A stretch of 61,258 nucleotides of DNA from Nanobdellota archaeon (lineage in GTDB: Archaea > Nanobdellota > Nanobdellia > Woesearchaeales > GW2011-AR9), in contig JBFMFP010000001.1 of the NCBI GenBank assembly GCA_040751885.1, forward strand, positions 1 to 61,258, written 5' to 3'. The position numbers and the translations under genes were made by a program. A model generated the notes under the pieces. The model was not told the origin of the DNA. It worked only from the letters and a program-made list of their open reading frames with translations, and made no database searches. Shown here one piece after another: positions 4,091 through 52,360 of this stretch; the stretch's first letter is position 1, and each line of letters begins with the position of its first letter.

Positions 4091-4170
4091 TTTAAATGCC
4101 AACAATAACTATGAAGTTTAAATGTCAACAATAACCATGGAGCTTAAATGCCAGCCATAACCAAAATCAA
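4091..4170 (+). repeat. Three tandem ~26-nt copies of the enolase 5' end (leader, ATG and first codons)
   Basis: tttaaATGccaacaataact / tttaaATGtcaacaataacc / ttaaATGccagccataacc. The third copy is the real eno start at 4148. Confidence 0.8.
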
Positions 4171-5419
4171 AGCGAGGGAAATCCTAGATAGTAGAGGAAA
4201 CCCGACAGTTGAAGTAGATGTCTTTATAGGCAGCAATAAATATACTGCATCCGTGCCCAGCGGAGCATCTACAGGAAAATACGAAGCTCTGGAGTTAAGA
4301 GATAAAGACAAGCGTTACCTGGGTAAAGGTGTACAAAAAGCTGTCAGTAATGTCAATACAAAAATTGCTCCTTTGCTGGTTGGCAAAGATTGCTGCCGGC
4401 AGAAAGAGATTGATTCTCTGATGATTAAAAAAGACGGCACTAAAAATAAGCAGAAGCTGGGAGCCAATGCTATCTTAGGCGTTTCCTTAGCCTCTGCCCG
4501 TGCTGCTGCAGGTGAGCAGGACAAGCAGTTGTACCAATATATTCATGAGCTATGCAGGCCGGACAAAAAAATGTCCCTCCCCCGGCCTTTCTTTAACGTT
4601 ATCAATGGGGGTAAACATGCCGGGAATGCGCTGGTTTTTCAGGAGTTTATGATTGTGCCAAAAGCTGATTCTTTCTGTGAAGCGCTGAGGATGGGCAGCG
4701 AAGTGTACCATGTGTTAAAATCAATCATTGAACAAAAGTATGGCATAAACGCAGTTAATGTCGGTGATGAAGGGGGTTTTGCTCCGCCGATAAAAACAGC
4801 GGAAGAGGCTTTTGATTTATTGATAGCAGCGATAAAAAAATCTGGTTATGCTGGAAGAATGGATTTAGCGATGGACTGTGCCGCGTCTGAGTTTTATAAA
4901 AAGGGTTATTATCATATTCACAGAAAAATAAAAAAAGATGAATTACTAAACTATTATCTTAAGCTGATTAAAAAATATCCCCTAATTTCCATTGAAGATC
5001 CTTTTGAGCAGGATGATTTTTCCAGTTTTGCAGAATTGAAAAAGAGAAGCGGTATCCAAATTGTAGGTGATGATTTAACAGTCACCAGTATCAAAAGAAT
5101 AGAAAAAGCCAGCAAAGAAAAAAGCTGTAACTGTTTATTGCTGAAAGTAAACCAGATTGGTACTTTAACAGAAGCTCTTCAGGCAGTACAATCAGCTTAC
5201 AAAAACGGCTGGAAAGTGATGGTCAGCCACCGTTCCGGCGAGACGGAAGATGCGTTCATTGCCGACCTGGCTGTAGGCATTGGCTGTGGAATGCTTAAGG
5301 CTGGCGCTCCCTGCCGGGGAGAAAGGACAGCAAAATACAACCGCCTGCTGAGAATTGAAGAATTCATAACCACGTCCCCTAAACATATAACTGCACCTCC
5401 TAAACATTTATATACGTAA
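4148..5419 (+). CDS. eno: Enolase (phosphopyruvate hydratase)
   Basis: 423 aa. N-terminus [22 protein letters not shown] plus SHRSGETED and the other enolase signature blocks. Confidence 0.95.
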
Positions 5420-5436
5420 AATTTTTGGTCTTAACC

Positions 5437-6048
5437 ATGCCCGCAAAACCTATTCCAAAAGATCAGCTTGTTCAAGTTGCATCTTCCAGTGTTAAGTATA
5501 AAGACATCTTTGACATGAAGACTTTTTATGAAGCGCTGCACGAATGGCTGGCCGAATATCAATGGACGGATATTCAGGATAAATCTGATAAATACGAAAC
5601 TTTTTATGGCGAGCGCATTGGCCGGGATGGGGCTAAAGAGTTATGGATACGCTGGCGGATGCACAGGAATCCCGAAGGTGCGCCCATGCTGACCTATTAC
5701 CTTGATTTTGACTACCACTGCCTGCAGCTGATCTCTACTGAAGTTGTCCGCGAAGGGAAAAAGCTAAAGGTAAATAAAGGGGAAGTTGAAATCATTGTCA
5801 AAGCTTTTATTGAAGAGAAATACAAAGAGAAATTTGCCGGGCATTCTCTGCTCAGGCATGTTGGCGGGCTTTTTTCCCGCAGGATCTATGATGTAATAAT
5901 GAATCAAAGGAAAAAAGAGTTATATCAGGAAGTTTACATCCTTCTTAATTTTATAAAACAGTGGTTTAAATTAAAGAGGTACCACCCTTACGAAGAAGTA
6001 AAGCCTTTCCAGACCAGTTATGCCTGGCCGTCGCATTTGGAGAAATGA
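5437..6048 (+). CDS. Hypothetical protein
   Basis: Long ORF with coding-like composition. The ATG at 5437 is preferred over the TTG at 5425. No recognisable motif. Confidence 0.55.
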   Translation: MPAKPIPKDQLVQVASSSVKYKDIFDMKTFYEALHEWLAEYQWTDIQDKSDKYETFYGERIGRDGAKELWIRWRMHRNPEGAPMLTYYLDFDYHCLQLISTEVVREGKKLKVNKGEVEIIVKAFIEEKYKEKFAGHSLLRHVGGLFSRRIYDVIMNQRKKELYQEVYILLNFIKQWFKLKRYHPYEEVKPFQTSYAWPSHLEK

Positions 6049-6116
6049 GCTATTTGGAGAGATGAGTTTATTCTTTTTAGCATTTGCTTACATTAACATC
6101 TACTTACAACACCCAC

Positions 6117-8253: not shown

Positions 8254-8769
8254 TTATCGTTGGGGGCGGGCGTTAGTAAGTATTTGTCTGATTTCACTGA
8301 TTTGTTCAGGTGTCACGTTCTCGATCACTTCTTCTATTTTCAGAACAAAGTTTCGTGCTGTCGCTGAATCGGTTTTCAATTTCTCTTTGTCTATTTGTTC
8401 TGTCACGTAGTACTGTGTATCTATCCTCAAGTCTTTAGCCAAGAGCAATTCGGTGTAGAGTTCTTCAGGGATGATATTTTCCTCAACAAAAAGAAAGTGC
8501 ATTAATGAAATGGTGCAATCATGAATTTCTGACTTTATACCACATTTTTGGAGTAAAGCATAAAGAGCAAAATACCGAGAGTAATAGGCTGTTGTTGCTA
8601 TCCAATCAATTTCTTCTTTTTCAATGGCAGAGTCCAACATGTTCAGCGCACTTTTTGCTTTCTCGATGTAGGCATCACATAGATTGTTATTTGGTTCTTC
8701 AAGCTTAATGCCTCGTTTTTGCTGCCAGCACCAAGAAACATGACTTTTGGGATTTTTATCCTCTGACAC
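8254..8769 (-). CDS. HEPN domain protein (toxin of a HEPN/MNT pair)
   Basis: 171 aa. TTAYYSRYFALYALLQKCGIKSEIHDCT is typical of a HEPN helical core. Sits directly downstream of an MNT gene. Confidence 0.7.
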   Translation of the reverse strand: MSEDKNPKSHVSWCWQQKRGIKLEEPNNNLCDAYIEKAKSALNMLDSAIEKEEIDWIATTAYYSRYFALYALLQKCGIKSEIHDCTISLMHFLFVEENIIPEELYTELLLAKDLRIDTQYYVTEQIDKEKLKTDSATARNFVLKIEEVIENVTPEQISEIRQILTNARPQR

Positions 8770-8813
8770 TCAAAACCACCTCATAATTTTGGTGTCTCCT
8801 GAAAACATTGTTT

Positions 8814-9428
8814 TCATGAGATTTCATGGTAATACTTCCACAATCCATTTATGAAATTATCAGGATTTTGCAAGATGATGTGATACTTTAAAATTTCTAT
8901 GATCAAAGCATCTTTTTTTCTTAATGCACTCTCAAAATTCTCACTTGTGGCAGTTTTAAGATTAATGGTTTTTCCATAGGTTTTTCCAATAGATTTTATT
9001 TTTGTGGCTTCGGTTTCTTTTAATTCTGCCAAATAGAAGATGTCAATATCGCTGTCATCTTTAAATGTTTTTTTAGCATAAGAACCGAACAGGACAAACG
9101 AACCTGAAAGTTTAAGCTTGGAAATCTCAGCAGTTATTTTTTTGATGAGAAAGACCTGCTCTTGGAAAGTTATAGATTCAAAGAGTTCGCTGATGGTAAG
9201 GTAATTTTTAGTGAGAATATTATCCAGATTCATGGCGTAAACTTTGTTTTTGCCGATGGTTTTGGCGATGAGAATTTTGTCTTTTTCTAGCGTTTTAAGA
9301 TGAGGAAGTAGGGTAACGTGGCTTTTTTTGGTTAATTTAGCCATTTCTCTAACATGATACTGCGCGAGGTAGTTTGATCTGTAGAGGCTCAAAATTCTCA
9401 GTTTATTATCGGTTGTTTTATCTACCAT
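8814..9428 (-). CDS. Nucleotidyltransferase (MNT) with N-terminal winged-helix domain
   Basis: 204 aa. LFGSYAKKTFKDDSDIDIFY matches the GSx(n)DxD minimal nucleotidyltransferase motif. The N-terminal ~70 aa look like an HTH. Confidence 0.7.
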   Translation of the reverse strand: MVDKTTDNKLRILSLYRSNYLAQYHVREMAKLTKKSHVTLLPHLKTLEKDKILIAKTIGKNKVYAMNLDNILTKNYLTISELFESITFQEQVFLIKKITAEISKLKLSGSFVLFGSYAKKTFKDDSDIDIFYLAELKETEATKIKSIGKTYGKTINLKTATSENFESALRKKDALIIEILKYHIILQNPDNFINGLWKYYHEIS

Positions 9429-11262: not shown

Positions 11263-11320
11263 AAGTCTTTAATTTAATTTAAGTCTTTAATTCAAGCCTT
11301 TAATTTAAGTCCTTAATTTT
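11263..11320. repeat. Four tandem ~14-nt units (aagtctttaattt-like)
   Basis: aagtctttaatttaattt / aagtctttaattc / aagcctttaattt / aagtccttaatttt, directly after the tatD stop. Confidence 0.8.
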
Positions 11321-11690: not shown

Positions 11691-11701
11691 GTATTCTTAA
11701 A

Positions 11702-11747
11702 AAATAAAGAAATAAAAAGCAAAGAAATAAAGAAATAAAAAGCAAAG
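11702..11747. repeat. Two exact 23-nt tandem units aaataaagaaataaaaagcaaag
   Basis: Read directly; begins 12 nt after the rpoL stop. Confidence 0.85.
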
Positions 11748-11807
11748 AAACAAAAATAAAAAAAATCAAAAGAGAAATATTTTAAATCCGCCTGTTTCTG
11801 AACACTT

Positions 11808-13208
11808 ATGCTTGACAAAGGAGCCTGTTTGAGATTCTATAAAAGGAAGGACATTCAGGAAGCTATAGTTGCGCATGCCCGGAATAAAGAAGTCGGGACG
11901 CGTTACGGAGATACTTTCGGCAAAAGGCCGGATGCGCTTTCTTATCCTCAGGAGATACTTAATTTGGCCATGCAGGGGGTAACTTCCTTTCACTGCAGCG
12001 AAGAGTTGTGGGAGAATCCTCTTTTTCTGGGCAGCAACTCCAGCAGGAAGGAGCTGGATGAGCTGCGCATCGGCTGGGATTTAGTGCTGGATATAGACTG
12101 CGCGATTGTTGATTACAGCAAAATATGTGCGGATTTGATTATTAAATTCCTGAGATACAATGGTGCTGAAGATATCTCCCTGAAATTTTCCGGGAATAAA
12201 GGGTTTCATATAGGGATTCCTTTTGAGGCTTTTCCAAAGCAGGTAGGCAATTCTCTGACCAAAAATCTCTTCCCGGAAGCGTCTAAGAAAATTGCCCTCT
12301 ACATTAAAGAAAACATTAAAAGGGAGCTGGCCAGAAGGATAATGGAATTTGAAAATAACGATTTTACTGCCGTGAGGCAGAAAGTGGGCTTAGACAAAGG
12401 AGGCATCATTTGCTACGAGAAAAATGAGTTTGGCGACAATGTCCCGCTGCTTGACGTAGAGCCGTTCTTAGGAATAGACACTATTTTGCTTTCTTCCCGC
12501 CATTTGTACAGGATGCCCTATTCTTTGCATGAAAAGTCCGGGCTGGTAAGCCTGCCCATAAGCCCGGATAAAGTCATAGATTTCAGCAAAGAGATGGCTA
12601 AGCCGGAAGTAATATTAACACCTATGTTTGAATTTCTCTGCCGGGAGGTGAGCAGGGAAAGTGCACGAGAACTGCTCATCAAAGCCATGGATTTTGAAGT
12701 TAAAGTAAAAGAGGACAAAGCCCGTGAGGAATTCTCTGAGAAGCATAAGCATAATAAAGACAGAAATTTTGAAGAGTTTAAGATTGAGAGTCCAATCAAA
12801 GAAGAGTTTTTTCCGCCATGCATTAAAACAGTTCTCAAGGGCATGGAGGACGGAAGGAAAAGGTCCGTCTTTGTGCTGATGAATTTTCTGGGCAAGCTCG
12901 GCTGGAGCAGGGAAGAAATTGAAGCTTATTTGCATAAATGGAACAAGGAAAAAAACAGGGAATCCTTGCGGGAAGTTTACATCAAAGGACAGATGAGCAA
13001 TTTTAAAGGTGATAAGTTACCGCCCAACTGCAATAATGAAGCTTATTACAAAGGGCTGAGGATATGCACTCCCGACAGTTTATGTACAAAAATAAAAAAT
13101 CCTGTCAATTATACTCTTTTGAAATGGAAAAGGTGGCTGAGGGAGAAGGAAGAAGGGGAAGGGAAAAAGAAAAAAACTTTAAAGACGTCGGTGAGAGCGT
13201 CTTCCTAA
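11808..13208 (+). CDS. Fused archaeo-eukaryotic primase: PriS catalytic domain plus PriL-like 4-Cys C-terminal domain
   Basis: WDLVLDIDC and SGNKGFHIGIPF are primase catalytic motifs. The C-terminal part has FPPCI plus three further Cys (PPNC, RIC, SLC) with PriL Fe-S-like spacing. Confidence 0.8.
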   Translation: MLDKGACLRFYKRKDIQEAIVAHARNKEVGTRYGDTFGKRPDALSYPQEILNLAMQGVTSFHCSEELWENPLFLGSNSSRKELDELRIGWDLVLDIDCAIVDYSKICADLIIKFLRYNGAEDISLKFSGNKGFHIGIPFEAFPKQVGNSLTKNLFPEASKKIALYIKENIKRELARRIMEFENNDFTAVRQKVGLDKGGIICYEKNEFGDNVPLLDVEPFLGIDTILLSSRHLYRMPYSLHEKSGLVSLPISPDKVIDFSKEMAKPEVILTPMFEFLCREVSRESARELLIKAMDFEVKVKEDKAREEFSEKHKHNKDRNFEEFKIESPIKEEFFPPCIKTVLKGMEDGRKRSVFVLMNFLGKLGWSREEIEAYLHKWNKEKNRESLREVYIKGQMSNFKGDKLPPNCNNEAYYKGLRICTPDSLCTKIKNPVNYTLLKWKRWLREKEEGEGKKKKTLKTSVRASS

Positions 13209-13235
13209 AAGTCTTTATCTTCCTGAAAGTCTTTA
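13200..13235. repeat. Two 18-nt tandem copies of the primase stop-codon context
   Basis: tcttccTAAaagtcttta / tcttccTGAaagtcttta. Both copies carry an in-frame stop. Confidence 0.85.
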
Positions 13236-13555: not shown

Positions 13556-14167
13556 ATGGCAGATAAACAGGCAGAAAACAGGCGGGCGGAAAGAGCAAAC
13601 CCTAATAGAGTAAACCCTAATAAAGCAGAAAAGGCTGAAAAAGCTGAAAAGTTTGATTCTAATTTTAAGCATATCGTCAGGGTTGCCAATGTGGATTTGC
13701 CGGGAGAGAAACAAACGCGTTTTGCCCTGACTAAAATAAAAGGCATTGGCATAAATTTTGCTGATGCTGTCTGCGCAGTCGCAGGTATTGACAGGCAAAC
13801 CAAAGCAGGGTATCTGAGTGATGAAAATATTCAGCAGCTGAATAAAGCGGTGTTGGATCCGGCCGGTAACGGGATTCCTTCCTGGTTTTTTAACCGCAAG
13901 AGGGATTATGAAAGCGGCGAGGACAAGCACCTTCTTACAGGAACATTGACTTTTGTCCGTGAAAATGACTTAAAGCGCTTAAAGAAAATAAAGTCTTTCC
14001 GTGGAGTAAGGCATCAGAAGGGCCTGCCTGTGCGCGGGCAGAGGACAAAATCACACTTCAGGAAAAACAAGGGTAAAGTTGTTGGCGTCGCTAAGAAAAA
14101 AGTGCCTGCTGAAGGCGGTAGCGCAGCTAAAGAAAAGCCAAGTAAAGGCGGTAAAGAGAAGAAGTAG
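13556..14167 (+). CDS. rps13: 30S ribosomal protein uS13 with a repeat-built N-terminal extension
   Basis: HIVRVANVDLPGEKQTRFALTKIKGIG core. The first ~35 aa contain NPNRVNPNK and AEKAEKAEK repeats. Confidence 0.9.
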   Translation: MADKQAENRRAERANPNRVNPNKAEKAEKAEKFDSNFKHIVRVANVDLPGEKQTRFALTKIKGIGINFADAVCAVAGIDRQTKAGYLSDENIQQLNKAVLDPAGNGIPSWFFNRKRDYESGEDKHLLTGTLTFVRENDLKRLKKIKSFRGVRHQKGLPVRGQRTKSHFRKNKGKVVGVAKKKVPAEGGSAAKEKPSKGGKEKK

Positions 14168-42337: not shown

Positions 42338-42354
42338 ATTTCCTTCATTAATGT

Positions 42355-42522
42355 TTATTTCTCTACAACAACCAATATTGCTTCATAAAACAAAGCAAAT
42401 AAAGATAATGATACTGAAAATTTGTCTAAACATTCTGTTCCTATTGTTATCAAATATGAATAAACTATCACCATAAACACAAATATCAGTAATCCGATTT
42501 TAAGCGATTTCAACTCTTGCAT
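42355..42522 (-). CDS. 55-aa two-TM small membrane protein inserted between rpoB'' and rpoB'
   Basis: MQELKSLKIGLLIFVFMVIVYSYLITIGTECLDKFSVSLSLFALFYEAILVVVEK. Same strand as the operon and below the ORF-track cut-off. Confidence 0.35.
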   Translation of the reverse strand: MQELKSLKIGLLIFVFMVIVYSYLITIGTECLDKFSVSLSLFALFYEAILVVVEK

Positions 42523-42528
42523 CTTCTA

Positions 42529-42609
42529 TATCACTCCTAATACCTTCAATATCATTAAAATGGCAAGCACGACTAATACTCCCCATCCTAAAATTTCATA
42601 CCACTCCAT
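42529..42609 (-). CDS. 26-aa single-TM micropeptide candidate
   Basis: MEWYEILGWGVLVVLAILMILKVLGV, ending 6 nt upstream of the 55-aa ORF. Confidence 0.2.
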
Positions 42610-42781
42610 TGTTCTCGTCCTCCATTTAGTTTGTAATATTTTCTTTAGGTTTATATTCAAATTTCTTATAATCTGTAACTAAATCGTCTGCTCATTTTAT
42701 CGTCTTTTTTGCACATCATATAACCAATATAACTTGTACATCATATAACCGATACATACACACCGTATAACCGATACAACT

Positions 42782-44254
42782 TCATACGGCTTCTTTCAGT
42801 CCGATATTTTTCAGCTTTTCAACAATTTCCTCTTCATCAACACTTCGTGAAATTGAGCAGAGCATAGCTAAATTTTTTCTCAGCCCGATGTTTGTACCTT
42901 CAGGAGTTTCTATCGGGCATAAGCGCCCAATATGAGTGCAATGCAGTGCGCGGGCTTCAAAATTCTCCTGCGAAGTTGATAAAGGACTGACTACTCTCTG
43001 CAGGTGTGAAACCATGTCTAAATAATTAGTACGGCTCATCCTCTGGGCGATTCCCTGCCTTCCTCCTACCCATTCCCCCGTTGCCATCGAGGAATACAAA
43101 CGGGAAGTAAGCAGTTTGCCGCGGATGATTACCCTTATTGAAGGCAGCTTTCCCCTCTTGATTATCCTCTGGAAGTTGTAAAGTATGTCTCCGACCAGAA
43201 CCTTAAAATTAACCCTGAACAGATCAATAAGAAGATCGCCGCTCATATGCAAACGCTTGTTCATGTAATGGTCTTTGTTGTCTGCAGGCCTTAAGCCATT
43301 GCCGACGTCAATGAATTTTTTTAGCATTTTGCAGAGGTTCTTTGCCTTGGCCAAACGGCTGGAAGAATCAATGCCAACATTTGGCAGAAGGAATTTGTCA
43401 ATGATTTCCTTGGTGCGCTCAACACGTACCTCTTTAGGCTGCGCCACTCCTGTTTTCCTGGCAATGAAATCTATTGCCTCCTCCTGAGTCTTGACATCAA
43501 CAAACTCAAAGAGGTTAAGCAGAGCTTCTTCATAATTCCTCTCCATAGAAATAGCCTTCATGATATTTTCATCTTTAACAATACCCAAAGCTTTGATAAT
43601 CACGATAAGAGGGACTGCTTTCACACGGGTAAAAGTAAGGTAATAAAGGCCATCTTTTTTCCTTTCAAAAGTATGGGGAATCTTATAAGAGCCTTTTACT
43701 GCAAAAAAGCGACCGCTGATCTCAGAACCGTCTTTCTCAACCATGAAATTATTTCCGGCCAGATCTTCCACCGTAACCAATAATTTTTCTGTCCCGTTGA
43801 TAATGAAATATCCCCCGGGGTCGGTAACATCCTCACCGTGCTTAATCAACTCTTCCTGGCTTAAGCCATGCAGATGGCAGTATTTACTCCTCAGCATGAT
43901 GGGGATTTTCCCAATCTCGGCGACAAAATTTTCTCTTTGGATGTCATTGACATAAGTACTGATTTCAAGCTGGATGGGGGCAGAGTAAGAAATCTTCCTT
44001 AAACGAGCTTCCATAGGGAAAATGGGCCTTTTGCTCCCGTCAGCTTCGGTAATTTCCGGCTTGCCTACGGTGACCCGGCCAAAACGAATCTTGAATTTTT
44101 CAATATTATGGGGGATTATTGCCGGCTCGGCTTCCTTGTTTTCTTCTATAACTTCCTGCAGGCCTTTTTCAATCAAATTATTAAATGACTGAATATTGCT
44201 TTCCACAAACTTTTTTTCTTCAAAATATTTTTTGACAAGTATTGACCTATCCAA
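42782..44254 (-). CDS. rpoB2: DNA-directed RNA polymerase subunit B'' (N-terminal half of Rpo2)
   Basis: 490 aa, with an N-terminal Rpo2 protrusion/lobe-like sequence ending in the ...GRLCPIETPEGTNIGL region. Confidence 0.95.
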   Translation of the reverse strand: MDRSILVKKYFEEKKFVESNIQSFNNLIEKGLQEVIEENKEAEPAIIPHNIEKFKIRFGRVTVGKPEITEADGSKRPIFPMEARLRKISYSAPIQLEISTYVNDIQRENFVAEIGKIPIMLRSKYCHLHGLSQEELIKHGEDVTDPGGYFIINGTEKLLVTVEDLAGNNFMVEKDGSEISGRFFAVKGSYKIPHTFERKKDGLYYLTFTRVKAVPLIVIIKALGIVKDENIMKAISMERNYEEALLNLFEFVDVKTQEEAIDFIARKTGVAQPKEVRVERTKEIIDKFLLPNVGIDSSSRLAKAKNLCKMLKKFIDVGNGLRPADNKDHYMNKRLHMSGDLLIDLFRVNFKVLVGDILYNFQRIIKRGKLPSIRVIIRGKLLTSRLYSSMATGEWVGGRQGIAQRMSRTNYLDMVSHLQRVVSPLSTSQENFEARALHCTHIGRLCPIETPEGTNIGLRKNLAMLCSISRSVDEEEIVEKLKNIGLKEAV

Positions 44255-44273: not shown

Positions 44274-44510
44274 TCATCCTCCTATGACCAGCCTATAGTA
44301 ATAAGTAACGCCGGCAGTTTTGCTGACTCTTTCAATCTTAATAACATCCCCTGCTTTTACACTCAGATGAGCTATAGCTGGATCGTCTTTAAGAATTTTT
44401 GGCAGGGCCTGACCGTTAATATTATACTTTTCAAACAAAGCCTTTTTCTCAGAATCGTTTGCCTTTGTATGCTTGCTTACAAGTTGGTGCTTGGTAATGT
44501 TAAAAGTCAT
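44274..44510 (-). CDS. rpoH: DNA-directed RNA polymerase subunit H (Rpo5)
   Basis: LPKILKDDPAIAHLSVKAGDVIKIERVSKTAG, and position upstream of rpoB''. Confidence 0.85.
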   Translation of the reverse strand: MTFNITKHQLVSKHTKANDSEKKALFEKYNINGQALPKILKDDPAIAHLSVKAGDVIKIERVSKTAGVTYYYRLVIGG

Positions 44511-44562
44511 TTTAAGATAACCATCTAATCTTTCTGATGCCTATTCTTTTCGTAAAGTAAAG

Positions 44563-44786
44563 CGGGCCGGAAGGGACTTTCAAGCTGCAATTCTAATTTA
44601 CGCGGCGGGCTTCATGCCCGCCCTACTCGCCTATCCTCAGAAATACTACGCATTTCTGGGATGTTACAAATCTGATGATTTGAAACAGATTGCTGGCTTT
44701 TGAACCCTCGACCGCTTGATTGCTTTCCTTAAGTTACTTTTTTCAGTTAAAAGTCAAGCGCTCCAGCCAAGCTGAGCTACCGGCCC
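44563..44786 (-). tRNA. tRNA-Lys(UUU) with a 37/38 intron and a 122-nt T-loop intron
   Basis: GGGCCGG-TA-GCTCAGCTTGGCTGGAGC-G-CTTGA-CTTTTA[~27 nt]A-TCAAG-CGGTC-GAGGG-TTCAAA[122 nt]T-CCCTT-CCGGCCC-G. Confidence 0.8.
44577..44698 (-). other. T-loop (59/60) intron, family 2, in tRNA-Lys
   Basis: Same ends and core as 34200-34265, with an extra ~55-nt internal insertion. Confidence 0.75.
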
Positions 44787-44789
44787 AAA

Positions 44790-45004
44790 CGCCCTGGCCG
44801 GGAATTTCACAGATGTCACGCCATCTGAGAGGCGAACCTTCGCTTCGCTCAGGAAGACCGAAACGTGTCTTCTAAGAGGCGAGGCGACTACGCTTCGTCG
44901 CAAGGGCGTGCACTTGCTTTGAACCCGGGTCGAAGCCTTTCTCTAAACCCTCTTCCCACGGGCCTGCGACAGGGCTTCATGCTAGGCCACTACACCACCA
45001 GGGC
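44790..45004 (-). tRNA. tRNA-Asp(GUC) with an anticodon-loop intron and a 114-nt T-loop intron
   Basis: GCCCTGG-TG-GTGTAGTGGCCTAGCAT-G-AAGCC-CTGTCG[~29 nt]-GGCTT-CGAC-CCGGG-TTCAAA[114 nt]T-CCCGG-CCAGGGC-G. Lies 3 nt from tRNA-Lys. Confidence 0.8.
44804..44917 (-). other. T-loop (59/60) intron, family 1, in tRNA-Asp
   Basis: Contains two direct gagaggcga..cgcttcg units. Its ends resemble imperfect inverted repeats (GCAAGTGCACGCC / GGCGTGACATCTGTG). Confidence 0.75.
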
Positions 45005-45378
45005 ATGACAGAGCTTTGCCTACATCCTATTCTTATTTTAAGAGCATTAGATGTAGAAGATTACCTGCCATTTCTCAGCTAAAACTGTGGTCTATTTATA
45101 AACGTTTTGGTGGATTTTTATGAAATGAGCGGAAATTTCTGGGGAAACATTTAAATAAAACAAGAATATTCATACTTGAAAATATTCATACTTAATTCAT
45201 ACTTGAAATCATATTCAGTACTAATTCAGTACTAAAATTTTATTTCGGTATTAAAATCATTTCAGTATTAAAATCTTATAATACCTAGACTTTTGCGCTT
45301 TCCTCACAAAAGCAGAATATCGGTAAGCTTAAAACGCAAAAGTTCAGAATACCCCACAACTATAACGAGGTGTGCAAA

Positions 45379-45630
45379 ATGCCCGAGAAAAAAATCGGAA
45401 AAATAACCCATTTCTTTGACAAAATAAGTGTAGCTGTAGTCAGCCTTTCTGCTGGTCTGAGCGTCGGTGATAAAATCAGAATTGAAGCCGCAGAACCATT
45501 TGAGCAGGTAGTTTCCTCAATGCAGGTAGAGCACAAGCCAATCAAAAAAGCAAAAGCTGGCGATGACGTCGGCTTAAAGACTACAAACCCATGCAAAGAA
45601 GGGGATATTGTTGTTAAATTAGCAGCTTAA
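45379..45630 (+). CDS. Small EF-Tu-domain-2-like beta-barrel protein
   Basis: GKITHFFDKISVAVVSLSAGLSVGDKIRI...KAKAGDDVGLK. GAGGTG lies 6 nt upstream of the ATG at 45379. Confidence 0.6.
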   Translation: MPEKKIGKITHFFDKISVAVVSLSAGLSVGDKIRIEAAEPFEQVVSSMQVEHKPIKKAKAGDDVGLKTTNPCKEGDIVVKLAA

Positions 45631-45983
45631 AAACAGTTTATAATTTCCTAAATTCCCAGAGTTTTAGGGATTAGTATGTCAAAAATGGCTGAAATCTGTT
45701 TTTGCTGTTTGGTCATTTCTTGTGTCACAAGTTCTGTATCGTAGACTTTGCATTTGAGGTTTCTCATTGGTAACGACTGTAAAAATTTTCGGGTGTCTAA
45801 CGGCTTGGCTTAAAAAGAAAGCCAAGAATGTTGTAGAACTAGCTGAGATACTCAATAAACAGGTGTTTGTTAAAAACGCAAAAGCTTAAAATTAAGAAAC
45901 TTTTAAATAAGAGGCTTAATAAACAACACAAAGGTAAACAACACACAACACAAAGGTAAACAACACAAAGTAGGGGAGTGCAT

Positions 45984-48980
45984 ATGAACGAAGAACAAAG
46001 CGAACAGCGGATTGGACCTCCAGCCGAATTAAAAAAAATTAATGATACTACCTGGGAGCTACCTGCTTCTTATAAGAAAGGCATGCGTGTTCCTGCGCGG
46101 ATTATTGCTACTGAAGAGCTAATTAAAGCTATGGATAATGGCGTGTTTAACCAGATCAGCAACGTAGCAACTCTTCCAGGCATTCAAAAGTATGCTTTCT
46201 GCATGCCCGACGGGCACTGGGGCTATGGGTTCCCAATAGGTGGAGTGGCGGCATTTGACCCGGAGGAGCAGGGGATAATCTCTCCGGGAGGAATAGGTTT
46301 TGACATAAATTGTTTAGTTAAAGGCTCAAAGATTTTAACGGATTTCGGTTATTTAAAACCCGTTGAAGATTTTGAAACGGAGTTTGTAGATGTTGATATC
46401 CCCTATTCTTTTTACTCTTTGAAATTACAAAAGTGTATGCAATCCCTTCTTTCTTTTGATACCAATAAAAAATCCTTCTCTTCTAAAAGCATAGGTTATT
46501 TTATGAAAAAAAAACAGGCTGGTTCAATTCTCCAAATTAAAAGCAATTTAGGATACGTTATTGAAGTCACTGAAGACCACCCTATCTTAACTAAAGAAGG
46601 AATGGTGGAAGCAGGGAGGTTATCTAAAAGCCAGGAAATTGCAATTTATCCTTACGAAGGAGTTTCCTACGAATGTTTAGATGAAGTTATGTTAGTTGAT
46701 GACCAAACCCTTTTTACAAAACAGGAAAAAGAGGAATTAGTGAAAAGGAATCTTTTTCCGTTGAGTATTAAAAATGAAAAACTACCCATATTAACAAAGC
46801 TGTTTGGTTACCTGCTCGGTGATGGTCAAATATATTTCTCCGGGAAGAAAGGGTTTGTTTGTGCTTATGGGGCAGAGGAGGATTTAAAAGAGATACAAAA
46901 AGACATAAATAAGTTGGGTTTTTCAGCAAATATTTATGGGCGTGAAAGAGAACATTCAATTCCAACAAAATATGGACTAGTCAGATTTTCTAACAAGAAC
47001 TTTGAATTGCATACTTCCTCAAAATCCTTGGTTAAGTTATTTTTTGCTTTAGGCTACCCAAATGGCGTAAAAACAAATGTTCCTTTTGTTGTTCCCGAGT
47101 GGATAATGAATTCACCATTATGGATTAAGCGGCTTTTTTTATCAGGATTGTTTGGGGCTGAGTTATCAAAGCCGAGAACCCATACTAAAACCGGGTTTGA
47201 CTGTCCAACCTTTTCCCAGAATAAGAACACCCTCCTCTTGGAAAATGCTAGGTATTATTGCATTCAAATCATGAAATTGCTTGAAGAATTTGGTGTTAAC
47301 ACCCATAAACTTCTTGTAAGAGATGATTATTCGAATCGCTACAGAAAAACTAGCCGGTTAAAGCTACAAATCTCTTCAGAAGAAGAAAATTTGTTAAAAT
47401 TGTGGAGTAAAATAGGGTTTAGTTACAATCAAAAAAGGGAATTATTATCGCATATTGGTATAATTTACATCAAAGAAAAAAAGATTCTAACACAAAAACG
47501 TAAAGAAGTTGCTCAGAAAATTGAAGAATACAGAAAGAAAGGATTGAAATTAACCGAAATTCAAAAGTTATTGCTGTCGCCAATTACTAATGAAAGGTTT
47601 ATTACAAGGCATTTTTATGAGCAAGCTGATTATAGGATTCATTTAGATTTTCTTTCATTTAATTCTTTTGTAAAGTTAAAAAAGGAGCAATACGATGAAT
47701 ACGGTTGTTTTTTTGATGCCGTAGAAGCAGTCACTAAGAAAGAATATGATGATTATGTTTATGATTTTAATATTCCAGAAACTCATAATTTCATTGCGGG
47801 AAATGTAATTGTTTCCAATTGCGGCATGCGCTTAATTACCACCAATTTAACGGTCAATGAAGTTAAGCCAAAGATAAAAGAACTGGTTGATGCTCTTTAT
47901 CAGCAGGTTCCCGCCGGGGTGGGCTGCAAGGGTTTTGTAAAACTGAGCAGGCAGGAGTTTAGGGAAGTGATGAAAGAAGGGGCGCAATGGTGCTTTAACT
48001 ACGGCTATGCTACGCAATCGGATATAGAGCATATAGAAAGCCGGGGCAAAATTCCCGGAGCTGACCCTTCCAAAGTTTCTGACAAGGCAGTTAAAAGAGG
48101 GTTTGACCAGCTGGGCACTTTGGGAAGCGGGAACCATTACTTAGAAATTCAGGAAGTCAAAAAAGAAAATATCTTCAATAGGGAATGGGCAAAAGTAATG
48201 GGCATAACTAAGTCCGGGCAGATAGTCATTATGGTCCATTGCGGCTCCCGGGGCTTTGGGCATCAGATAGGAACAGACTATTTACGGACATTTTTAGACG
48301 TGATGCCCAAGTATGGTATTGAGATTCTTGATAAAGAGCTTGCCTGTGCGCCATTTAATTCTGCAGAAGGGCAAGCGTATTATGCGGCCATGGCCTGTGC
48401 AGCAAACATGGCTTTTGCCAACAGGCAGGTGATACATCAGAGGATAAAAGAAGTGTTCAGCAAAGTATTTGCAAAGACAGCTGAAGAGATGGAAATAAAC
48501 CTTGTTTACGACGTAGCCCACAACATCGCCAAGCTGGAAAAGCACATTATTAACGGCAGGGAAAAAGAATTATTAGTGCACAGAAAAGGGGCCACCCGTG
48601 CCTTTGGTCCGAAAAGGGCAGCTGAGCTTCCTAAGAAATATGCTCAGATTGGGCAGCCGGTGATTTTAGGCGGAAGCATGGAAACTGGCTCGTATCTTTT
48701 GCTGGGAACAGATGGAGCTGATGACACTTTTGCCTCTACTGCCCATGGCGCAGGAAGGACGATGAGCCGGGCAGCAGCAAAGAGGACAGTAAGAGGGGAG
48801 CAGCTACAGAAAGAGATGGAAAAACAGGGGATATATGTGCATAGTGTAACCATGTCTGGATTAGCAGAAGAAGCCGGAAAAGCGTATAAAGATATTGAAG
48901 CGGTAGTGGATTCGTTGGAAATTGCAGGGATTACCAAAAGAGTTGTCGCTTTGAAGCCGATAGGGAATGTGAAAGGGTAA
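45984..48980 (+). CDS. rtcB: RtcB tRNA-splicing ligase interrupted by an intein
   Basis: The PGGIGFDIN / CGMRLITTN halves of the RtcB metal-binding motif are separated by 503 aa. The C-terminal RtcB blocks (GSRGFGHQ, HRKGATRA, STAHGAGR) are intact. Confidence 0.95.
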   Translation: MNEEQSEQRIGPPAELKKINDTTWELPASYKKGMRVPARIIATEELIKAMDNGVFNQISNVATLPGIQKYAFCMPDGHWGYGFPIGGVAAFDPEEQGIISPGGIGFDINCLVKGSKILTDFGYLKPVEDFETEFVDVDIPYSFYSLKLQKCMQSLLSFDTNKKSFSSKSIGYFMKKKQAGSILQIKSNLGYVIEVTEDHPILTKEGMVEAGRLSKSQEIAIYPYEGVSYECLDEVMLVDDQTLFTKQEKEELVKRNLFPLSIKNEKLPILTKLFGYLLGDGQIYFSGKKGFVCAYGAEEDLKEIQKDINKLGFSANIYGREREHSIPTKYGLVRFSNKNFELHTSSKSLVKLFFALGYPNGVKTNVPFVVPEWIMNSPLWIKRLFLSGLFGAELSKPRTHTKTGFDCPTFSQNKNTLLLENARYYCIQIMKLLEEFGVNTHKLLVRDDYSNRYRKTSRLKLQISSEEENLLKLWSKIGFSYNQKRELLSHIGIIYIKEKKILTQKRKEVAQKIEEYRKKGLKLTEIQKLLLSPITNERFITRHFYEQADYRIHLDFLSFNSFVKLKKEQYDEYGCFFDAVEAVTKKEYDDYVYDFNIPETHNFIAGNVIVSNCGMRLITTNLTVNEVKPKIKELVDALYQQVPAGVGCKGFVKLSRQEFREVMKEGAQWCFNYGYATQSDIEHIESRGKIPGADPSKVSDKAVKRGFDQLGTLGSGNHYLEIQEVKKENIFNREWAKVMGITKSGQIVIMVHCGSRGFGHQIGTDYLRTFLDVMPKYGIEILDKELACAPFNSAEGQAYYAAMACAANMAFANRQVIHQRIKEVFSKVFAKTAEEMEINLVYDVAHNIAKLEKHIINGREKELLVHRKGATRAFGPKRAAELPKKYAQIGQPVILGGSMETGSYLLLGTDGADDTFASTAHGAGRTMSRAAAKRTVRGEQLQKEMEKQGIYVHSVTMSGLAEEAGKAYKDIEAVVDSLEIAGITKRVVALKPIGNVKG
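46311..47819 (+). mobile_element. Intein with a LAGLIDADG homing-endonuclease domain (503 aa)
   Basis: Starts with Cys (CLVKGSKIL) and ends ...HNFIAGNVIVSN, followed by the extein +1 Cys. Two LAGLIDADG-like motifs (LFGYLLGDGQ, FLSGLFGAE). Confidence 0.9.
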
Positions 48981-49043: not shown

Positions 49044-49871
49044 ATGTTCAAAAAATTTTTTAACTGTTCTTTGCCCTGCTCCTGCCAGTTTTTGTTTTTT
49101 TTGCTGATTTTTTTGTTAATGGTTGTTTTATTGGTTTCTTCTTGCACAGGTGCTGAAAAAAGTTATGGTTTAAAAAATGAAACTATTGGGGCTATTTCTG
49201 AAAAAGATGGTTCTGTTCAAGGAAACGAAACCGCTGAAGGAATTGTCAAAGGTGAGGAAACAAAAGAAAATGAACAAGCCTCTTTATGTGTTGCCGGATG
49301 GAAATGCATCAGTTCCAGTGCGCGTGCATACCAGTCGGGGAATTGCAGCTGGAGCAAGAAAGAAGAGTGTTCTTTGAGATGTAAAGAAGGAAATTGCACC
49401 TGTTCCCCCGGCTTTGCCTGCAAAAACGGCAGCATTCGCGGTTACCAAACTGAAGAATGCGCATGGCTCCATGAGCAGTATTGCTCTTTTGGATGCGTGG
49501 AAAGTGCGTGCTTGTCATTCCCACAGAAAAAGCAGACTAACGAGCCTGCCGGAGAAGGTACAGAAAGTATATCCACAGCTCCTACAAATGTAACTCCCGC
49601 CGTTCTGGCAACGGAAGTCGTAGAGGGAGTTAATTATCTGCTGGCAATGGGAGAAAAGAAAAAGATTTCTTTCAAAGGAAAAGAGCATGAAATCTGGCTC
49701 TACAACATTGAAGAGGGCCGCGTGAAGATAAATCTTGACCAGTGGGAAAGTGACTGGCTCAGTGACAAGGGAAATTATACATTTGGCGGGGAAGTGCAGC
49801 TCTTTATTGACGAAATTTTATTCCAGCCGTATCAAGGCGGGAAGAAAAGTGTGAGTTATAATTTGAGGTAA
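49044..49871 (+). CDS. Secreted Cys-rich lipoprotein-like hypothetical protein
   Basis: Signal plus lipobox LVSSC, and repeated C...W...C modules. Confidence 0.6.
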   Translation: MFKKFFNCSLPCSCQFLFFLLIFLLMVVLLVSSCTGAEKSYGLKNETIGAISEKDGSVQGNETAEGIVKGEETKENEQASLCVAGWKCISSSARAYQSGNCSWSKKEECSLRCKEGNCTCSPGFACKNGSIRGYQTEECAWLHEQYCSFGCVESACLSFPQKKQTNEPAGEGTESISTAPTNVTPAVLATEVVEGVNYLLAMGEKKKISFKGKEHEIWLYNIEEGRVKINLDQWESDWLSDKGNYTFGGEVQLFIDEILFQPYQGGKKSVSYNLR

Positions 49872-49910
49872 TTGAAAAAAATTAATTGAAAAAAAGTTAA
49901 TTGAAAAAAT
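49869..49910. repeat. Three tandem copies of the stop-codon context TAAttgaaaaaa
   Basis: taattgaaaaaaat / taattgaaaaaaagt / taattgaaaaaat. The first TAA is the real stop. Confidence 0.85.
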
Positions 49911-50092: not shown

Positions 50093-50137
50093 CATCAACC
50101 GCACCTTTTAAATACCAGTAATTGTTTTCCTGAGGTG

Positions 50138-51331
50138 ATGGATGGCTCTACGAAATTATTTAAAATATTTGGGATAGACGTTCAGCTGCATTTTTCCTGG
50201 TGGCTGATTTTTGTGTTATTGGCTTGGAGCCTGTCCAGCGCATTCTTTCCCCAGAGCTTTCCCGGGCTGAGTGTTAAGATGTACTGGCTGATGGGAATCG
50301 TTGCTTCACTGCTGCTGTTTGTTTCTGTCCTCCTTCATGAATTAAGCCATTCTTTGGTTGCCAAGGCCAGAAAGATAAAAGTAGAAAGTATAACTCTTTT
50401 TTTCTTTGGCGGAGTTGCCGGAATAGATGATGAAGATATGAAAGCAGGCTCAGAGTTTCTTATGGCTATTGCCGGCCCGTTATTTTCCTTGTTTTTGGCG
50501 TTAGTGTTTTTCCTGATTTACAAGTTTAATGGCAACGTTTTCTGGGCGGCTATAACGATGTACCTTTACCAGCTGAATTTTATCCTCGCTATTTTTAATT
50601 TAATTCCGGGATTCCCGTTGGATGGGGGAAGAGCGTTTAGGGCAATTTTGCATGCTTATTACCATGACTTAAAGAAAGCGACGAAGATTGCTGCCAGCAG
50701 CGGGCGCATTTTTGCCATTTTTTTAATCGTCTTGGGAATTTTTGGATTGCTCAGTGGCGCTGCCCAGGGATTATGGTTAATTTTCCTGGGCGGATTTCTT
50801 TATTTCATCGCCGGGTTAAGTTATGAGCAGGTTGTTTTGAAAGATGCTCTCAGCAGGATTAAAGTTAAGGAATTGCTGAAAGCAAAATATCCTGAAGTTA
50901 GTTCAGAGACGTATTTTTCTGATTTGCTGAAAGAATTTGCCAACAGGGGAGAAGATATGTTTGTGGTGGAAGGGTTGAAAAGGAAGGGTTCTGCAATGAA
51001 AGGCAAGAGCTTTATCGGTATGCTCGATTTGAAAGCGTTAGATAAAATGCCTCCGCAGCTGCAGAAGACGGTTAAATTGAAGCAGCTGGCTACGCCTGCA
51101 GATAAAGTAGCTTCTGTCAATAAAGAAGACACCGCTTATGCTGCTTTCAAAAGCATTACAAAACAAAAAAGCGATTTCGTTGCCGTTATGGACAAAAAGA
51201 AATTCTTAGGTTTTGTAACAAAGAAAGTGCTTATGAACAGCCTGATTTGGTCATTGAAGTATGGGGCTGATAAAGAGAACGACGTTGTGGTTAAGAACAG
51301 AAAAAAATTGGGAACAAAAAAAAACGGTTAA
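50138..51331 (+). CDS. Site-2 protease family (M50) metalloprotease with CBS domains
   Basis: HELSHSLVA (HExxH) and NLIPGFPLDGGR. The start at MDGSTKLF follows GAGGTG. The upstream 65 codons of the ORF-track call are non-coding-like. Confidence 0.85.
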   Translation: MDGSTKLFKIFGIDVQLHFSWWLIFVLLAWSLSSAFFPQSFPGLSVKMYWLMGIVASLLLFVSVLLHELSHSLVAKARKIKVESITLFFFGGVAGIDDEDMKAGSEFLMAIAGPLFSLFLALVFFLIYKFNGNVFWAAITMYLYQLNFILAIFNLIPGFPLDGGRAFRAILHAYYHDLKKATKIAASSGRIFAIFLIVLGIFGLLSGAAQGLWLIFLGGFLYFIAGLSYEQVVLKDALSRIKVKELLKAKYPEVSSETYFSDLLKEFANRGEDMFVVEGLKRKGSAMKGKSFIGMLDLKALDKMPPQLQKTVKLKQLATPADKVASVNKEDTAYAAFKSITKQKSDFVAVMDKKKFLGFVTKKVLMNSLIWSLKYGADKENDVVVKNRKKLGTKKNG

Positions 51332-51372
51332 ACAGCAAAAGGATTAAAAAGAGGTCTTTTTCTCAGAATTGG

Positions 51373-52329
51373 ATGGATGAAGAAAGAGAATTAACCGAAC
51401 AGGAAGTAGAGCAGAAAATAATCTCTTTTTTAAAAAAACTTACTAATCACAAACATATAGATATCACCTCAAGAGGGAACACGGCTATCAAAGCTGCTTT
51501 TTCTTTAGTCCCGATTATTTCGGAAGGAAAAGAAAGTAAAAAAATTAAAGAAATTCTCGTCCCTGAAGAGGGCGGCTGGCTGACGTATAAAGATTTGCCG
51601 CAGAGAATGGGGATTTCTTTTGCAGAAGTGAAGTGTGATGACGCAAAAATAAGCTTGCAGGATTTGCAGCAGAAATTGCAGACTAAAAAGTATGCTCTTT
51701 TTCTTTATCAGAACCCGGGCGGGTATTTTGCCCAGCAGCCGATGAAAGAGATTTATGCTCTTTGCAGGCGATTTGCATGCCTTGTCGTTGTTGACGTTTC
51801 CGGCTCAATAGGGACAAAGCTGTGTGACGGCAATTATGCAGATCTTTTCGTCGGCAGTTTTGGAAAATGGAAATTGGTGGAAGCGCATGCCGGCGGATTT
51901 ATTTCCTGTAGAGACGAGCAGTTGTTTGACCTGATGATTACTCAGGGAAAAATTGAAAAATTAAATGATGAATTAAATGATGAATTAAATGATGAATTAA
52001 ATGATGAATTAAATGATAGGAGCAAGTTAAAAATTATTCTGGAGAAATTAAATGGTCTTGGGGAGAGAATACAATTTTTGCTGGAAAAAAGAAAAAAAAT
52101 AATTGCAGATTTGCTGGGGTTGAATATTGTCCCCCCTATTGTCTCTCAGGAAGCTCTCGTCCATAAGAATTCTTTAGGTTTTGTTGTCGTGATAAAATTT
52201 GTTACTGGGCAAGAAAAGGAAAAGATTATAAATTACTGCAAGGAGAACAACCTCGAATGGACGGAATGCCCGCGCTATATCCGCCTGAATAAAAAAGCAA
52301 TTTCAATTGAAGTGAAGAGGCTTAACTGA
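51373..52329 (+). CDS. Putative fold-type-I PLP-dependent enzyme-like protein with an LNDE repeat insert
   Basis: SRGNTAIKAAF, DVSGSIG and SFGKWK (possible Schiff-base Lys) resemble DegT/class-V-like enzymes. Weak assignment. Confidence 0.5.
   Translation: MDEERELTEQEVEQKIISFLKKLTNHKHIDITSRGNTAIKAAFSLVPIISEGKESKKIKEILVPEEGGWLTYKDLPQRMGISFAEVKCDDAKISLQDLQQKLQTKKYALFLYQNPGGYFAQQPMKEIYALCRRFACLVVVDVSGSIGTKLCDGNYADLFVGSFGKWKLVEAHAGGFISCRDEQLFDLMITQGKIEKLNDELNDELNDELNDELNDRSKLKIILEKLNGLGERIQFLLEKRKKIIADLLGLNIVPPIVSQEALVHKNSLGFVVVIKFVTGQEKEKIINYCKENNLEWTECPRYIRLNKKAISIEVKRLN
51961..52017 (+). repeat. Perfect in-frame 12-nt tandem repeat ttaaatgatgaa x4.75 (LNDE)n
   Basis: Read directly, with no mismatches. 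Confidence 0.95.
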
Positions 52330-52360
52330 ATTGGCTTAATTGAATTGGCTTAATTGAATT
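52319..52360. repeat. Three tandem 14-nt copies of the stop-codon context
   Basis: ggcttaacTGAatt / ggcttaattgaatt / ggcttaattgaatt. Confidence 0.85.

Follow-up and report, generated by a model that had tools for sequence, protein, structure and literature searches.

Short tandem direct repeats are real and strikingly dense in a 61,258-nucleotide (nt) stretch of archaeal DNA (contig JBFMFP010000001.1 of assembly GCA_040751885.1), referred to here as the window, which is a complete contig of a metagenome-assembled genome (MAG) of the Woesearchaeota/Nanoarchaeota, within the DPANN archaea. The explanation we favour, and hold to be probable though well short of certain, is that short (~9–30 nt) tandem duplication is unusually active, genome-wide, in this woesearchaeal lineage and is shaped by selection without being aimed at gene boundaries. 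The resulting arrays appear to match the tandem-repeat syndrome of Borgs, giant linear extrachromosomal elements of Methanoperedens, here in a cellular chromosome.

Tandem arrays in spacers and genes exceed chance

Counting as an array any Tandem Repeats Finder (TRF) hit with a score of at least 50 and a period of at least 7, we detected 34 arrays in the window, with periods of 9–51 nt, 2–8.6 copies and 67–100% identity between copies; eleven have at least three imperfect copies. Genes were delimited by a longest open reading frame (ORF) approximation backed by Pfam matches. Twenty-three arrays, covering 1203 nt, lie mostly in non-coding DNA, compared with 0.75 arrays and 32 nt in dinucleotide-preserving shuffles of each spacer (maximum 5 arrays and 211 nt), and arrays inside genes cover 593 nt, a figure that drops to 43 nt when codons are shuffled. 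One 50-kb stretch of E. coli K-12 holds one array and one of the AT-rich phage T4 two, so that the 34 of the window represent a 14- to 28-fold higher density. Among spacers of at least 25 nt, 24 of 45 bear an array; convergent spacers, the middle parts of long spacers and gene interiors hold arrays as well. No Rfam family matched within the arrays or in the long gap at 44500–45400.

The first-pass annotation, made from the letters alone, is borne out in its view of local tandem duplication as a genome-style signature. All the sites that it listed hold direct repeats, nearly all of them recovered by TRF at the same coordinates and also read directly in the sequence, and the three that TRF missed (20486–20524, 32850–32920 and 42712–42782) are degenerate direct repeats. 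Its description of the spacers as built from duplications overstates the case: arrays make up just 12–16% of spacer bases (0.4–2.4% by chance), and the extra copies total 760 nt, without which the non-coding fraction falls from 15.8% to 14.7%.

The array density is raised over that of relatives

We compared the window with 160 related loci (2.46 Mb) sampled around the RNA polymerase operon only, bearing in mind that any of these short-read assemblies may have collapsed repeats. Spacer arrays are about five times denser in the window (2.10 vs 0.41 per kb, Poisson P=6e-10), and the density within genes rises by an equal factor (0.219 vs 0.044 per kb), which runs counter to the idea that the phenomenon is specific to spacers. 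The part of the window equivalent to the sampled region of the relatives (~30–52 kb) contains 12 arrays in ~22 kb, the same density as the window as a whole. The closest RpoB′ elsewhere in genome, metagenome and protein collections is at most 83–84% identical, all matches belonging to Woesearchaeota/Nanoarchaeota; exact-protein look-ups for five window proteins returned no match, and no contig of the same species was found in any collection.

The excess could in principle reflect an ordinary duplication rate combined with greater retention through relaxed purifying selection, small effective population size or weak deletion bias, leading to spacer bloat. DPANN archaea are symbionts with reduced genomes, in which strong drift is expected, the non-coding fraction of the window is 15.8–17.9% compared with ~11% in the relatives, and small ORFs are inserted within the RNA polymerase operon. 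We nevertheless consider retention very unlikely to be the explanation: perfect duplications, which are young, are 5.6–14 times denser in the window than in the relatives, and their excess suggests a higher input rate and not retention alone. Selection is moreover still effective, as shown below by the avoidance of frame disruption, domains and promoters, and the extra copies account for only ~1 percentage point of the non-coding fraction.

Spacer expansion, one of the possibilities raised initially, is evident within the RNA polymerase operon, where the rpoB″>rpoB′ spacer measures 577 nt (median of 2 nt in 158 relatives) and the rpoB′>rpoA′ spacer 249 nt (median of 33.5 nt). At the latter junction the window has two arrays, whereas the 18 closest relatives have 9–47 nt and no array. 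Once the extra copies are removed, many spacers of the window fall back to 3–70 nt, like those of the relatives. Locus-unique units, the array-free rpoB′>rpoA′ junctions of the 18 closest relatives and copy identities of 67–100% point to a local and recent origin of each array. The 577-nt insert (42205–42781) also contains two small hydrophobic ORFs, of 27 residues (MEWYEILGWGVLVVLAILMILKVLGVI) and ~55 residues (MQELKSLKIGLL...), and a hairpin, CCCACGTTTGAAAACGTGGG.

Four distant relatives, L135, L153, L054 and L021, which are independent MAGs from other studies, show a similar array style, each with its own units. In L135 (contig Ga0209541_10003109) and L153 (Ga0209211_10000693), whose RpoB′ proteins are 73% and 67% identical to that of the window, we found 9 and 5 spacer arrays, respectively, in ~20 kb, a density as high as that of the window, with A-rich units of their own. 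The high-array trait thus recurs independently. Array density is overdispersed across lineages (P=1e-5). On the RpoB′ tree no clustering of the high-array state was seen, and the lineages closest to a high-array one have low densities; together these results describe a scattered trait at the level of the tips.

That the repeats are assembly or amplification artefacts is a concern for any contig from a MAG, and the Borg papers report that short-read assemblers often misjudge the number of units in tandem-repeat regions. The documented errors in Borgs collapse repeats and do not create them, however, and most arrays of the window are shorter than a read, with diverged copies (67–96%) of a kind that assemblers do not invent. 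Arrays inside genes preserve the reading frame, promoters and domains are avoided, and the pattern is repeated in the four independent MAGs, all of which makes an artefact highly improbable.

Catalogue of arrays

The arrays are listed below with their coordinates and strand (a point where no strand is assigned), period and copy number. They were found by TRF, except those at 20486–20524 and 42712–42782, and with translation or direct reading in addition where stated.

97–128, +: in-frame, period 15, 2.1 copies, in the N-terminal hydrophobic segment (residues 11–21) of ORF 67–2583, outside Pfam stretches (also by translation).
2680–2713, +: period 16, 2.1 copies, across the start codon (2700) of a DUF234/AAA ATPase gene, with a TATA-like box just upstream.
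4090–4163, +: eno, period 26, 2.8 copies, 85% identity; the start context and first enolase codons, with two further copies upstream. The true ATG (4148) is in the last copy, Enolase_N begins at residue 4, and in the middle copy a TATA-like TTTAAATG falls 31 nt before the true ATG.
11273–11319, +: period 13, 3.6 copies, TatD>rpoL spacer.
11698–11771, +: A-rich, period 23, 3.0 copies (sub-periods 8 and 15), rpoL>primase spacer.
13200–13235, +: period 18, 2.0 copies, across the primase stop, with an in-frame stop in both copies (also by direct reading).
13558–13651, +: three adjoining arrays (periods 11, 15 and 9) forming the N-terminal extension of ribosomal protein S13 (MADKQAENRRAERANPNRVNPNKAEKAEKAEK); the extension reads ...ANPNRVNPNKAEKAEKAEK and the Pfam domain begins at residue 42.
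14195–14227, +: period 15, 2.3 copies, adjoining the rps4 ATG (14228). The copies of the rps4 start context first described here are a real array, but the unit adjoins the ATG and does not contain it.
15351–15386, +: period 18, 2.0 copies, beginning at the final base of the S11 stop codon.
20486–20524, +: upstream of psmB, two 17-nt copies, 88% identical, at a spacing of 22 (AAAT/TAAATGATGG(G/A)TGT); a third, partial copy contains the true ATG at 20547.
21294–21340, +: period 17, 2.8 copies, psmB>aCPSF1/FttA spacer.
25857–25916, −: period 25–26, 2.2 copies, across the stop codon of the U32 peptidase gene.
27195–27241, −: period 16, 2.8 copies, duplicating the Shine-Dalgarno sequence and ATG of the U32 gene; it occupies the whole 34-nt spacer and reaches the stop of the radical-SAM gene.
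28266–28366, −: in-frame, period 21, 3.0 copies (LSKET repeats, residues 13–34), at the N-terminus of the radical-SAM gene (also by translation), which within the same interval carries a perfect 9-nt duplication of the start codon (MDTMDT).
28826–28854, −: perfect, period 10, 2.9 copies, linking the antitoxin stop to the MazF start.
29883–29939, +: period 18, 3.2 copies, 9 nt upstream of a RimK-like gene.
31093–31127, point: perfect, period 16, 2.2 copies, in a convergent (stop-stop) spacer, where a promoter is not expected.
31909–31939, −: period 11, 2.9 copies, in the C-terminal tail (residues 287–297 of 311) of an NAD(P)HX dehydratase gene, past the Pfam domain.
32816–32937, −: cluster of perfect and degenerate direct repeats (periods 12, 18–19, 32 and 10) upstream of gene 31863–32798.
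35084–35126, point: period 15, 2.9 copies, 96% identity, in a doubtful ORF, probably non-coding.
36362–36444, −: degenerate, period 22, 3.9 copies, across the rpoA″ stop codon.
40163–40251, −: period 25, 3.1 copies (plus a period of 11), just upstream of the rpoA′ start.
40257–40403, −: period 17, 8.6 copies, with a higher-order period of 51, 2.9 copies; the rpoB′ stop codon is in the first unit.
42211–42265, −: period 14, 3.1 copies (also 16, 2.2 copies), 6 nt upstream of the rpoB′ start.
42712–42782, −: three degenerate 24-nt copies adjoining the rpoB″ stop codon.
45168–45279, point: compound arrays (periods 27–29, 11 and 17) in the divergent spacer upstream of gene 45370–45630.
45923–45967, +: perfect, period 22, 2.0 copies, 10 nt upstream of the annotated RtcB start.
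49869–49909, +: period 14–15, 2.8 copies, the first unit opening with the stop codon of gene 49044–49871.
51959–52017, +: perfect, in-frame, period 12, 4.9 copies, encoding (LNDE)n in gene 51373–52329 (also by translation).
52319–52360, +: period 14, 3.0 copies, with the TGA stop of gene 51373–52329 in the first unit.
52804–52849, point: period 23, 2.0 copies, across the stop of gene 52376–52810, in a convergent spacer.
53838–53867, −: in-frame, period 15, 2.0 copies, gene 52898–54205.
56086–56134, +: in-frame, period 12, 4.1 copies (AKEK-like), MetRS linker, residues 456–472 (also by translation).
56431–56508, +: in-frame period 21, 2.0 copies, plus perfect period 18, 2.0 copies, at the end of the MetRS anticodon-binding domain and in the next linker.
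60216–60267, +: in-frame, period 18, 2.9 copies, in the Ala/Glu/Gly-rich C-terminal region of gene 57276–60389.

Selection on frame, domains and promoters

Periods divisible by 3 are found in 9 of the 11 in-gene arrays of the window and in 73 of 97 in the relatives, compared with the chance level in spacers (8 of 23, or 35%, and 33 of 112, respectively); the two in-gene exceptions in the window are a C-terminal tail and a doubtful ORF. Only one of ten in-gene arrays touches a stretch matched by Pfam, the others being linkers or terminal extensions, and repeats build such protein parts as the N-termini of S13 and of the radical-SAM protein, the MetRS linker and the (LNDE)n segment of gene 51373–52329.

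Upstream of genes, a TATA-like motif (TTTATAAA, TTTATATA or TTTTAAAT) is present at 13 of 57 start codons and peaks 26–35 nt before the ATG, a peak that is partly circular since the motif list was compiled by eye from the same upstream regions. A box at this fixed distance implies that many genes would have leaderless mRNAs. Genes within operons carry a GGAG/GGTG-type Shine-Dalgarno sequence in place of the TATA-like box. Matches to the motif are depleted inside arrays (2 of 82 non-coding matches vs 9.5 expected), and multiplication of promoters was rejected on this ground. Both of the matches inside arrays are in the eno array, which may be a single case of a promoter created by accident. The preservation of frame and the avoidance of domains and promoters establish that selection is still effective on these sequences.

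Locus-specific units with an A-bias on the sense strand

Each spacer carries its own unit, as the first reading had it: no unit of at least 16 nt has copies elsewhere in the window. Unit-to-unit similarity is at the level of shuffled sequence (mean longest shared word of 5.29 vs 5.19), and a shared motif or dispersed family was therefore rejected. On the sense strand, A makes up 55.0% of spacer arrays vs 37.0% of other co-directional spacer DNA, and 47.3% vs 32.4% in the case of in-gene arrays, with array flanks intermediate at 46%. A exceeds T on the sense strand in 24 of 29 arrays of the window, and the relatives are similarly biased (50.7% vs 35.1% A, with A>T in 113 of 149 arrays).

The window has genes on both strands, in 15 orientation blocks, and the bias reverses when gene orientation does. 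Scored on the + strand, + blocks have 14 A-rich and 5 T-rich arrays, while − blocks have none that is A-rich and 10 that are T-rich (Fisher P=2e-4), and the reversal persists in each sub-region that might correspond to one replichore. The bias therefore tracks the direction of transcription or selection on the sense strand and not the replication strand, and an origin in the replication strand was rejected.

Among perfect duplications with two copies, 47% lack any extra matching base at the junction, compared with 52% of simulated blunt events, with a small excess tail of microhomology of at least 3 nt (Mann-Whitney P=0.004). Since junction microhomology is little above that of simulated blunt events, neither microhomology-mediated slippage nor a rad27-type signature is clearly supported.

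Boundary overlap follows neutral placement

Twelve arrays of the window overlap the boundary of a coding sequence, 10 at a stop and 4 at a start, two of them at both. Under a placement model in which one unit is placed uniformly in the ancestral spacer, with the extra copies removed, and may extend into the flanking genes, 9.0 overlaps are expected (P=0.09), and 43 were observed vs 43.7 expected for the 115 arrays pooled from the window and 129 non-redundant relatives. Array formation is not aimed at gene boundaries. This placement test, run on the window and its relatives, found no overall enrichment at boundaries, and a boundary-focused mechanism of the type suggested in the first-pass annotation was rejected, since neutral placement accounts for the overlap in both the window and the pooled set. 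The two kinds of boundary do differ. Stop-spanning arrays are in small excess (10 vs 5.8 in the window, P=0.02; 38 vs 29.9 pooled, P=0.02) and start-spanning arrays are under-represented (14 vs 23.0 pooled), a combination that a selection filter would predict, as copies across a stop leave the protein unchanged while copies across a start alter the spacing of promoter or Shine-Dalgarno sequence, or introduce an ORF upstream, and survive less often.

Mutation coupled to boundaries or to transcription, by R-loops, polymerase-replisome collisions or stalling at bound initiation or termination factors, could also leave a stop excess, and would fit an A-bias that follows the direction of transcription and not a fixed DNA strand. 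We judge it unlikely, because overall overlap is neutral and starts are depleted, arrays are also found in the middle of long spacers and inside genes, selection alone predicts the stop excess, and A-rich sense-strand composition together with selection on the transcript can give the same A-bias.

A different proposal is that the arrays are functional cis-elements kept by selection, whether multiplied promoters or transcription factor sites, decoy starts, back-up stops or regulatory RNAs. Sixteen of 24 arrays are no more than 10 nt from a start or stop, the eno TATA-like box stands at the distance of the promoter-motif peak, short words are enriched in the units, and a regulatory RNA role for intergenic tandem repeats has been suggested in the Borg papers. 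This proposal is quite unlikely to be correct, given that no relationship links the units of different loci, the words enriched in them point in no consistent direction, and arrays contain fewer promoter motifs than expected. Start-spanning arrays are also scarce, genes show an equal excess, and arrays are found in convergent spacers but not at the orthologous rpoB′>rpoA′ junctions of the 18 closest relatives. The decoy starts and back-up stops considered initially find no support as a function on similar grounds: the arrays are not conserved at orthologous junctions, similar arrays occupy convergent spacers and the promoter motif is avoided.

Resemblance to Borg repeats and other known systems

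The first-pass annotation knew of no described mechanism or function for such repeats; in fact, Borg elements show this syndrome (PMC9879509), and locus-specific variable-number tandem repeats (VNTRs) are well known in prokaryotes. Borg tandem repeats are pervasive, with locus-unique units in both spacers and genes, as in the window (Schoelmerich et al. 2023, PMC9879509; PMC11208441). Genic units are divisible by 3 in both systems, and about a third of intergenic units are (14–38% in Borgs; PMC9879509). In both, the first unit often lies within a gene end, flanks are A-rich and the coding strand is enriched in A (48.4% vs 38.4% in Borgs, PMC9879509; 55% and 47% in spacer and in-gene arrays of the window). 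Borg repeats are missing from close relatives and the host (PMC9879509), as arrays of the window are from orthologous sites in relatives, and both are present between genes of conserved operons, later Borg papers reporting repeats even between mcr operon genes. In-gene repeats of both kinds fall outside Pfam stretches, in linkers and termini that are of low complexity by eye. On the strength of five Borg features found here, the arrays by analogy match the Borg syndrome.

There are also differences. The window is part of a cellular DPANN chromosome with mixed gene orientation, whereas a Borg is a giant linear element with single-strand coding, and the arrays of the window mostly have 2–4 copies, many of them decayed (67–96%), whereas Borg repeats are perfect with at least three units. 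Under the stringent Borg definition (perfect, at least three units, at least 50 nt) only the array at 51959–52017 qualifies, that is one repeat in 61 kb or 1.6 per 100 kb vs 3.8–6.9 in Borgs (PMC11208441), a single contig being too little for a rate.

By Pfam annotation the window is an ordinary archaeal chromosome segment, encoding enolase; ribosomal proteins S13, S4, S11, L18e, L13, S9 and L30e; RNA polymerase subunits D, L, H, B″, B′, A′ and A″; and NusA, proteasome beta subunit, aCPSF1/FttA, MetRS and an RtcB with an intein. tRNA genes are also present, and the RNA polymerase operon is syntenic with that of Woesearchaeota. The RNA polymerase, ribosomal protein, proteasome and tRNA genes, this synteny and the 15 orientation blocks exclude that the window is a Borg or mini-Borg.

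VNTR-type minisatellites offer another parallel, as head-to-tail units of 10–50 nt in the spacers of small genomes, many of them upstream of genes, which are thought to arise and change via slipped-strand mispairing; Mycoplasma hyopneumoniae has 144 intergenic tandem repeats (PMC5179023). Head-to-tail copies of a 10–100 nt unit at a fixed locus, which define a VNTR, are present in the window. VNTRs are usually discussed for a few contingency loci, in contrast to the window, in which roughly every second spacer has arrays and genes show a matching increase. Mycobacterial interspersed repetitive units (MIRUs) are intercistronic repeats whose small ORFs overlap the flanking stop and start codons, and resemble the arrays in standing in tandem between operon genes and involving neighbouring stop and start codons. 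MIRUs form one dispersed family at many loci, however, while in the window the unit differs at each locus. Dispersed families similar to MIRUs or repetitive extragenic palindromes, and footprints of miniature inverted-repeat transposable elements, were rejected as no units are common to loci, and a CRISPR array was rejected as copies are directly adjacent, with a period equal to the unit length and no unique spacers.

A further candidate for the cause of a lineage-specific duplication phenotype is suggested by yeast deficient in rad27/FEN1, which shows a genome-wide rise in short insertions and duplications tied to lagging-strand maturation (PMC5677150). The rad27 events are mediated by short flanking direct repeats, in contrast to the young duplications of the window, mostly without junction microhomology beyond chance. 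Literature searches found no description of such arrays in DPANN archaea.

A proposed model of duplication and filtering

A model for the genome-wide duplication that we favour has three steps. In the first, replication or repair synthesis would meet an A-rich tract of low complexity, where the nascent strand would misalign and copy a short segment twice. Two copies could then grow by slipped-strand mispairing to 3–9 copies and to higher-order periods (17 nt to 51 nt), a step for which the anatomy is observed. Finally comes a filter that the distribution of the arrays shows: duplications that break the frame or hit conserved domains or core promoters are lost. Linkers and termini retain in-frame copies, spacers retain copies whatever their phase, and copies straddling stops also survive, those straddling starts doing so less often. 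Ghost start codons, spare stop codons and longer spacers would be side effects. The enrichment of A on the sense strand could stem from A-rich seed tracts, from selection on the transcript, or from both. The molecular mechanism is inferred, and the surge may or may not reflect mutation rate alone.

Several points weigh against this reading. The mostly blunt junctions do not clearly support classical slippage between pre-existing direct repeats, and a fill-in/ligation or nuclease-mediated route is possible; for Borgs, too, the authors leave the mechanism open between polymerase slippage and a nuclease or recombinase route (PMC9879509). Certain short words are enriched in the units (AAGT/ACTT in 13 of 23 units vs 4.2 expected), although these enrichments, including TTAA and AATTA, are modest. 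Together with the small excess of stop-spanning arrays (P=0.02), they hint at some further process. A raised duplication rate is not fully separable from weaker purifying selection or weaker deletion bias. Lastly, the gene map is approximate, the genome sample is 61 kb of one MAG and the sampling of relatives is confined to a single operon region.

Pervasive A-rich tandem repeats have been treated as a hallmark of Borgs. What is new here is the extension of the syndrome to a cellular DPANN chromosome, together with a constraint on mechanism; Borg-like and VNTR-like repeats as such were already known. If the syndrome is shared by a cellular chromosome and, in a patchy way, by its relatives, its cause would be a property of cellular archaea, such as a polymerase or repair property or a process linked to transcription, and not necessarily a Borg-specific machine. 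The constraint is that the strand bias tracks the direction of transcription, which the mixed gene orientation of the window makes visible; in Borgs, single-strand coding per replichore means that sense and replication strands are not separable. Taking this further, we tentatively entertain, at somewhat less than even likelihood, that Borg-style repeat formation is a general archaeal process, seeded in A-rich tracts, oriented by transcription and episodic in scattered cellular lineages (the window, L135, L153 and L021). Such a process would lengthen operon spacers, build N- and C-terminal protein extensions and may occasionally create a leaderless promoter, as at eno.

The arrays also illustrate how a compact genome can grow, with operon spacers going from ~10–45 nt to 249 nt and terminal protein extensions built from repeats. 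In practice, arrays mislead the calling of start codons, and copy numbers derived from short reads may be wrong at these sites.

Other features of the contig

Several of the long "spacers" are not empty, as they hold intron-bearing tRNA genes. Standard scans found a single RNA gene, tRNA-Thr(tgt) with a 51-nt intron (17516–17640). Default ARAGORN and Rfam missed the following intron-containing tRNA genes.

44562–44795, −
23392–23563, +
34253–34369, −
~44800–45006, −

Relaxed ARAGORN searches recovered tRNA-Leu(taa) and tRNA-Gly(gcc), whose introns measure 86 and 46 nt, respectively, as well as tRNA-Lys(ttt). Judged by eye, the tRNA-Lys gene runs from GGGCCGGTAGCTCAGC... to ...TCCGGCCCG, ~230 nt apart, a span that implies that the T-loop holds a second intron, ~150 nt long, and a further tRNA-like 5′ half begins near 45006. 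Three GC-rich patches in ORF-free long gaps (33150–33450, 34875–35100 and 35175–35400; 47–55% GC, compared with 40% for the contig) may represent additional structured RNAs or tRNAs with introns.

The RtcB tRNA-splicing ligase gene (45978–48980), which adjoins a cluster of multi-intron tRNA genes, is split by an intein whose match to a LAGLIDADG endonuclease domain is borderline, standing at the Pfam cutoff (E=1.4e-4, 22.5 bits). Two toxin-antitoxin-like pairs are present, MazF/PemK with a VapB-like antitoxin at 28489–29070 and HEPN with a nucleotidyltransferase at 8254–9428.

At 11808–13208 a 466-residue protein has weak matches to both the small- and large-subunit families of archaeo-eukaryotic primase, the large-subunit match being above the Pfam cutoff (31.5 vs 22.4 bits) and the small-subunit match just under it (26.0 vs 26.8 bits). 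To go by these domain matches, the protein may be a fused PriS-PriL primase, and such a putative fusion may bear on lagging-strand synthesis in a duplication-rich lineage.

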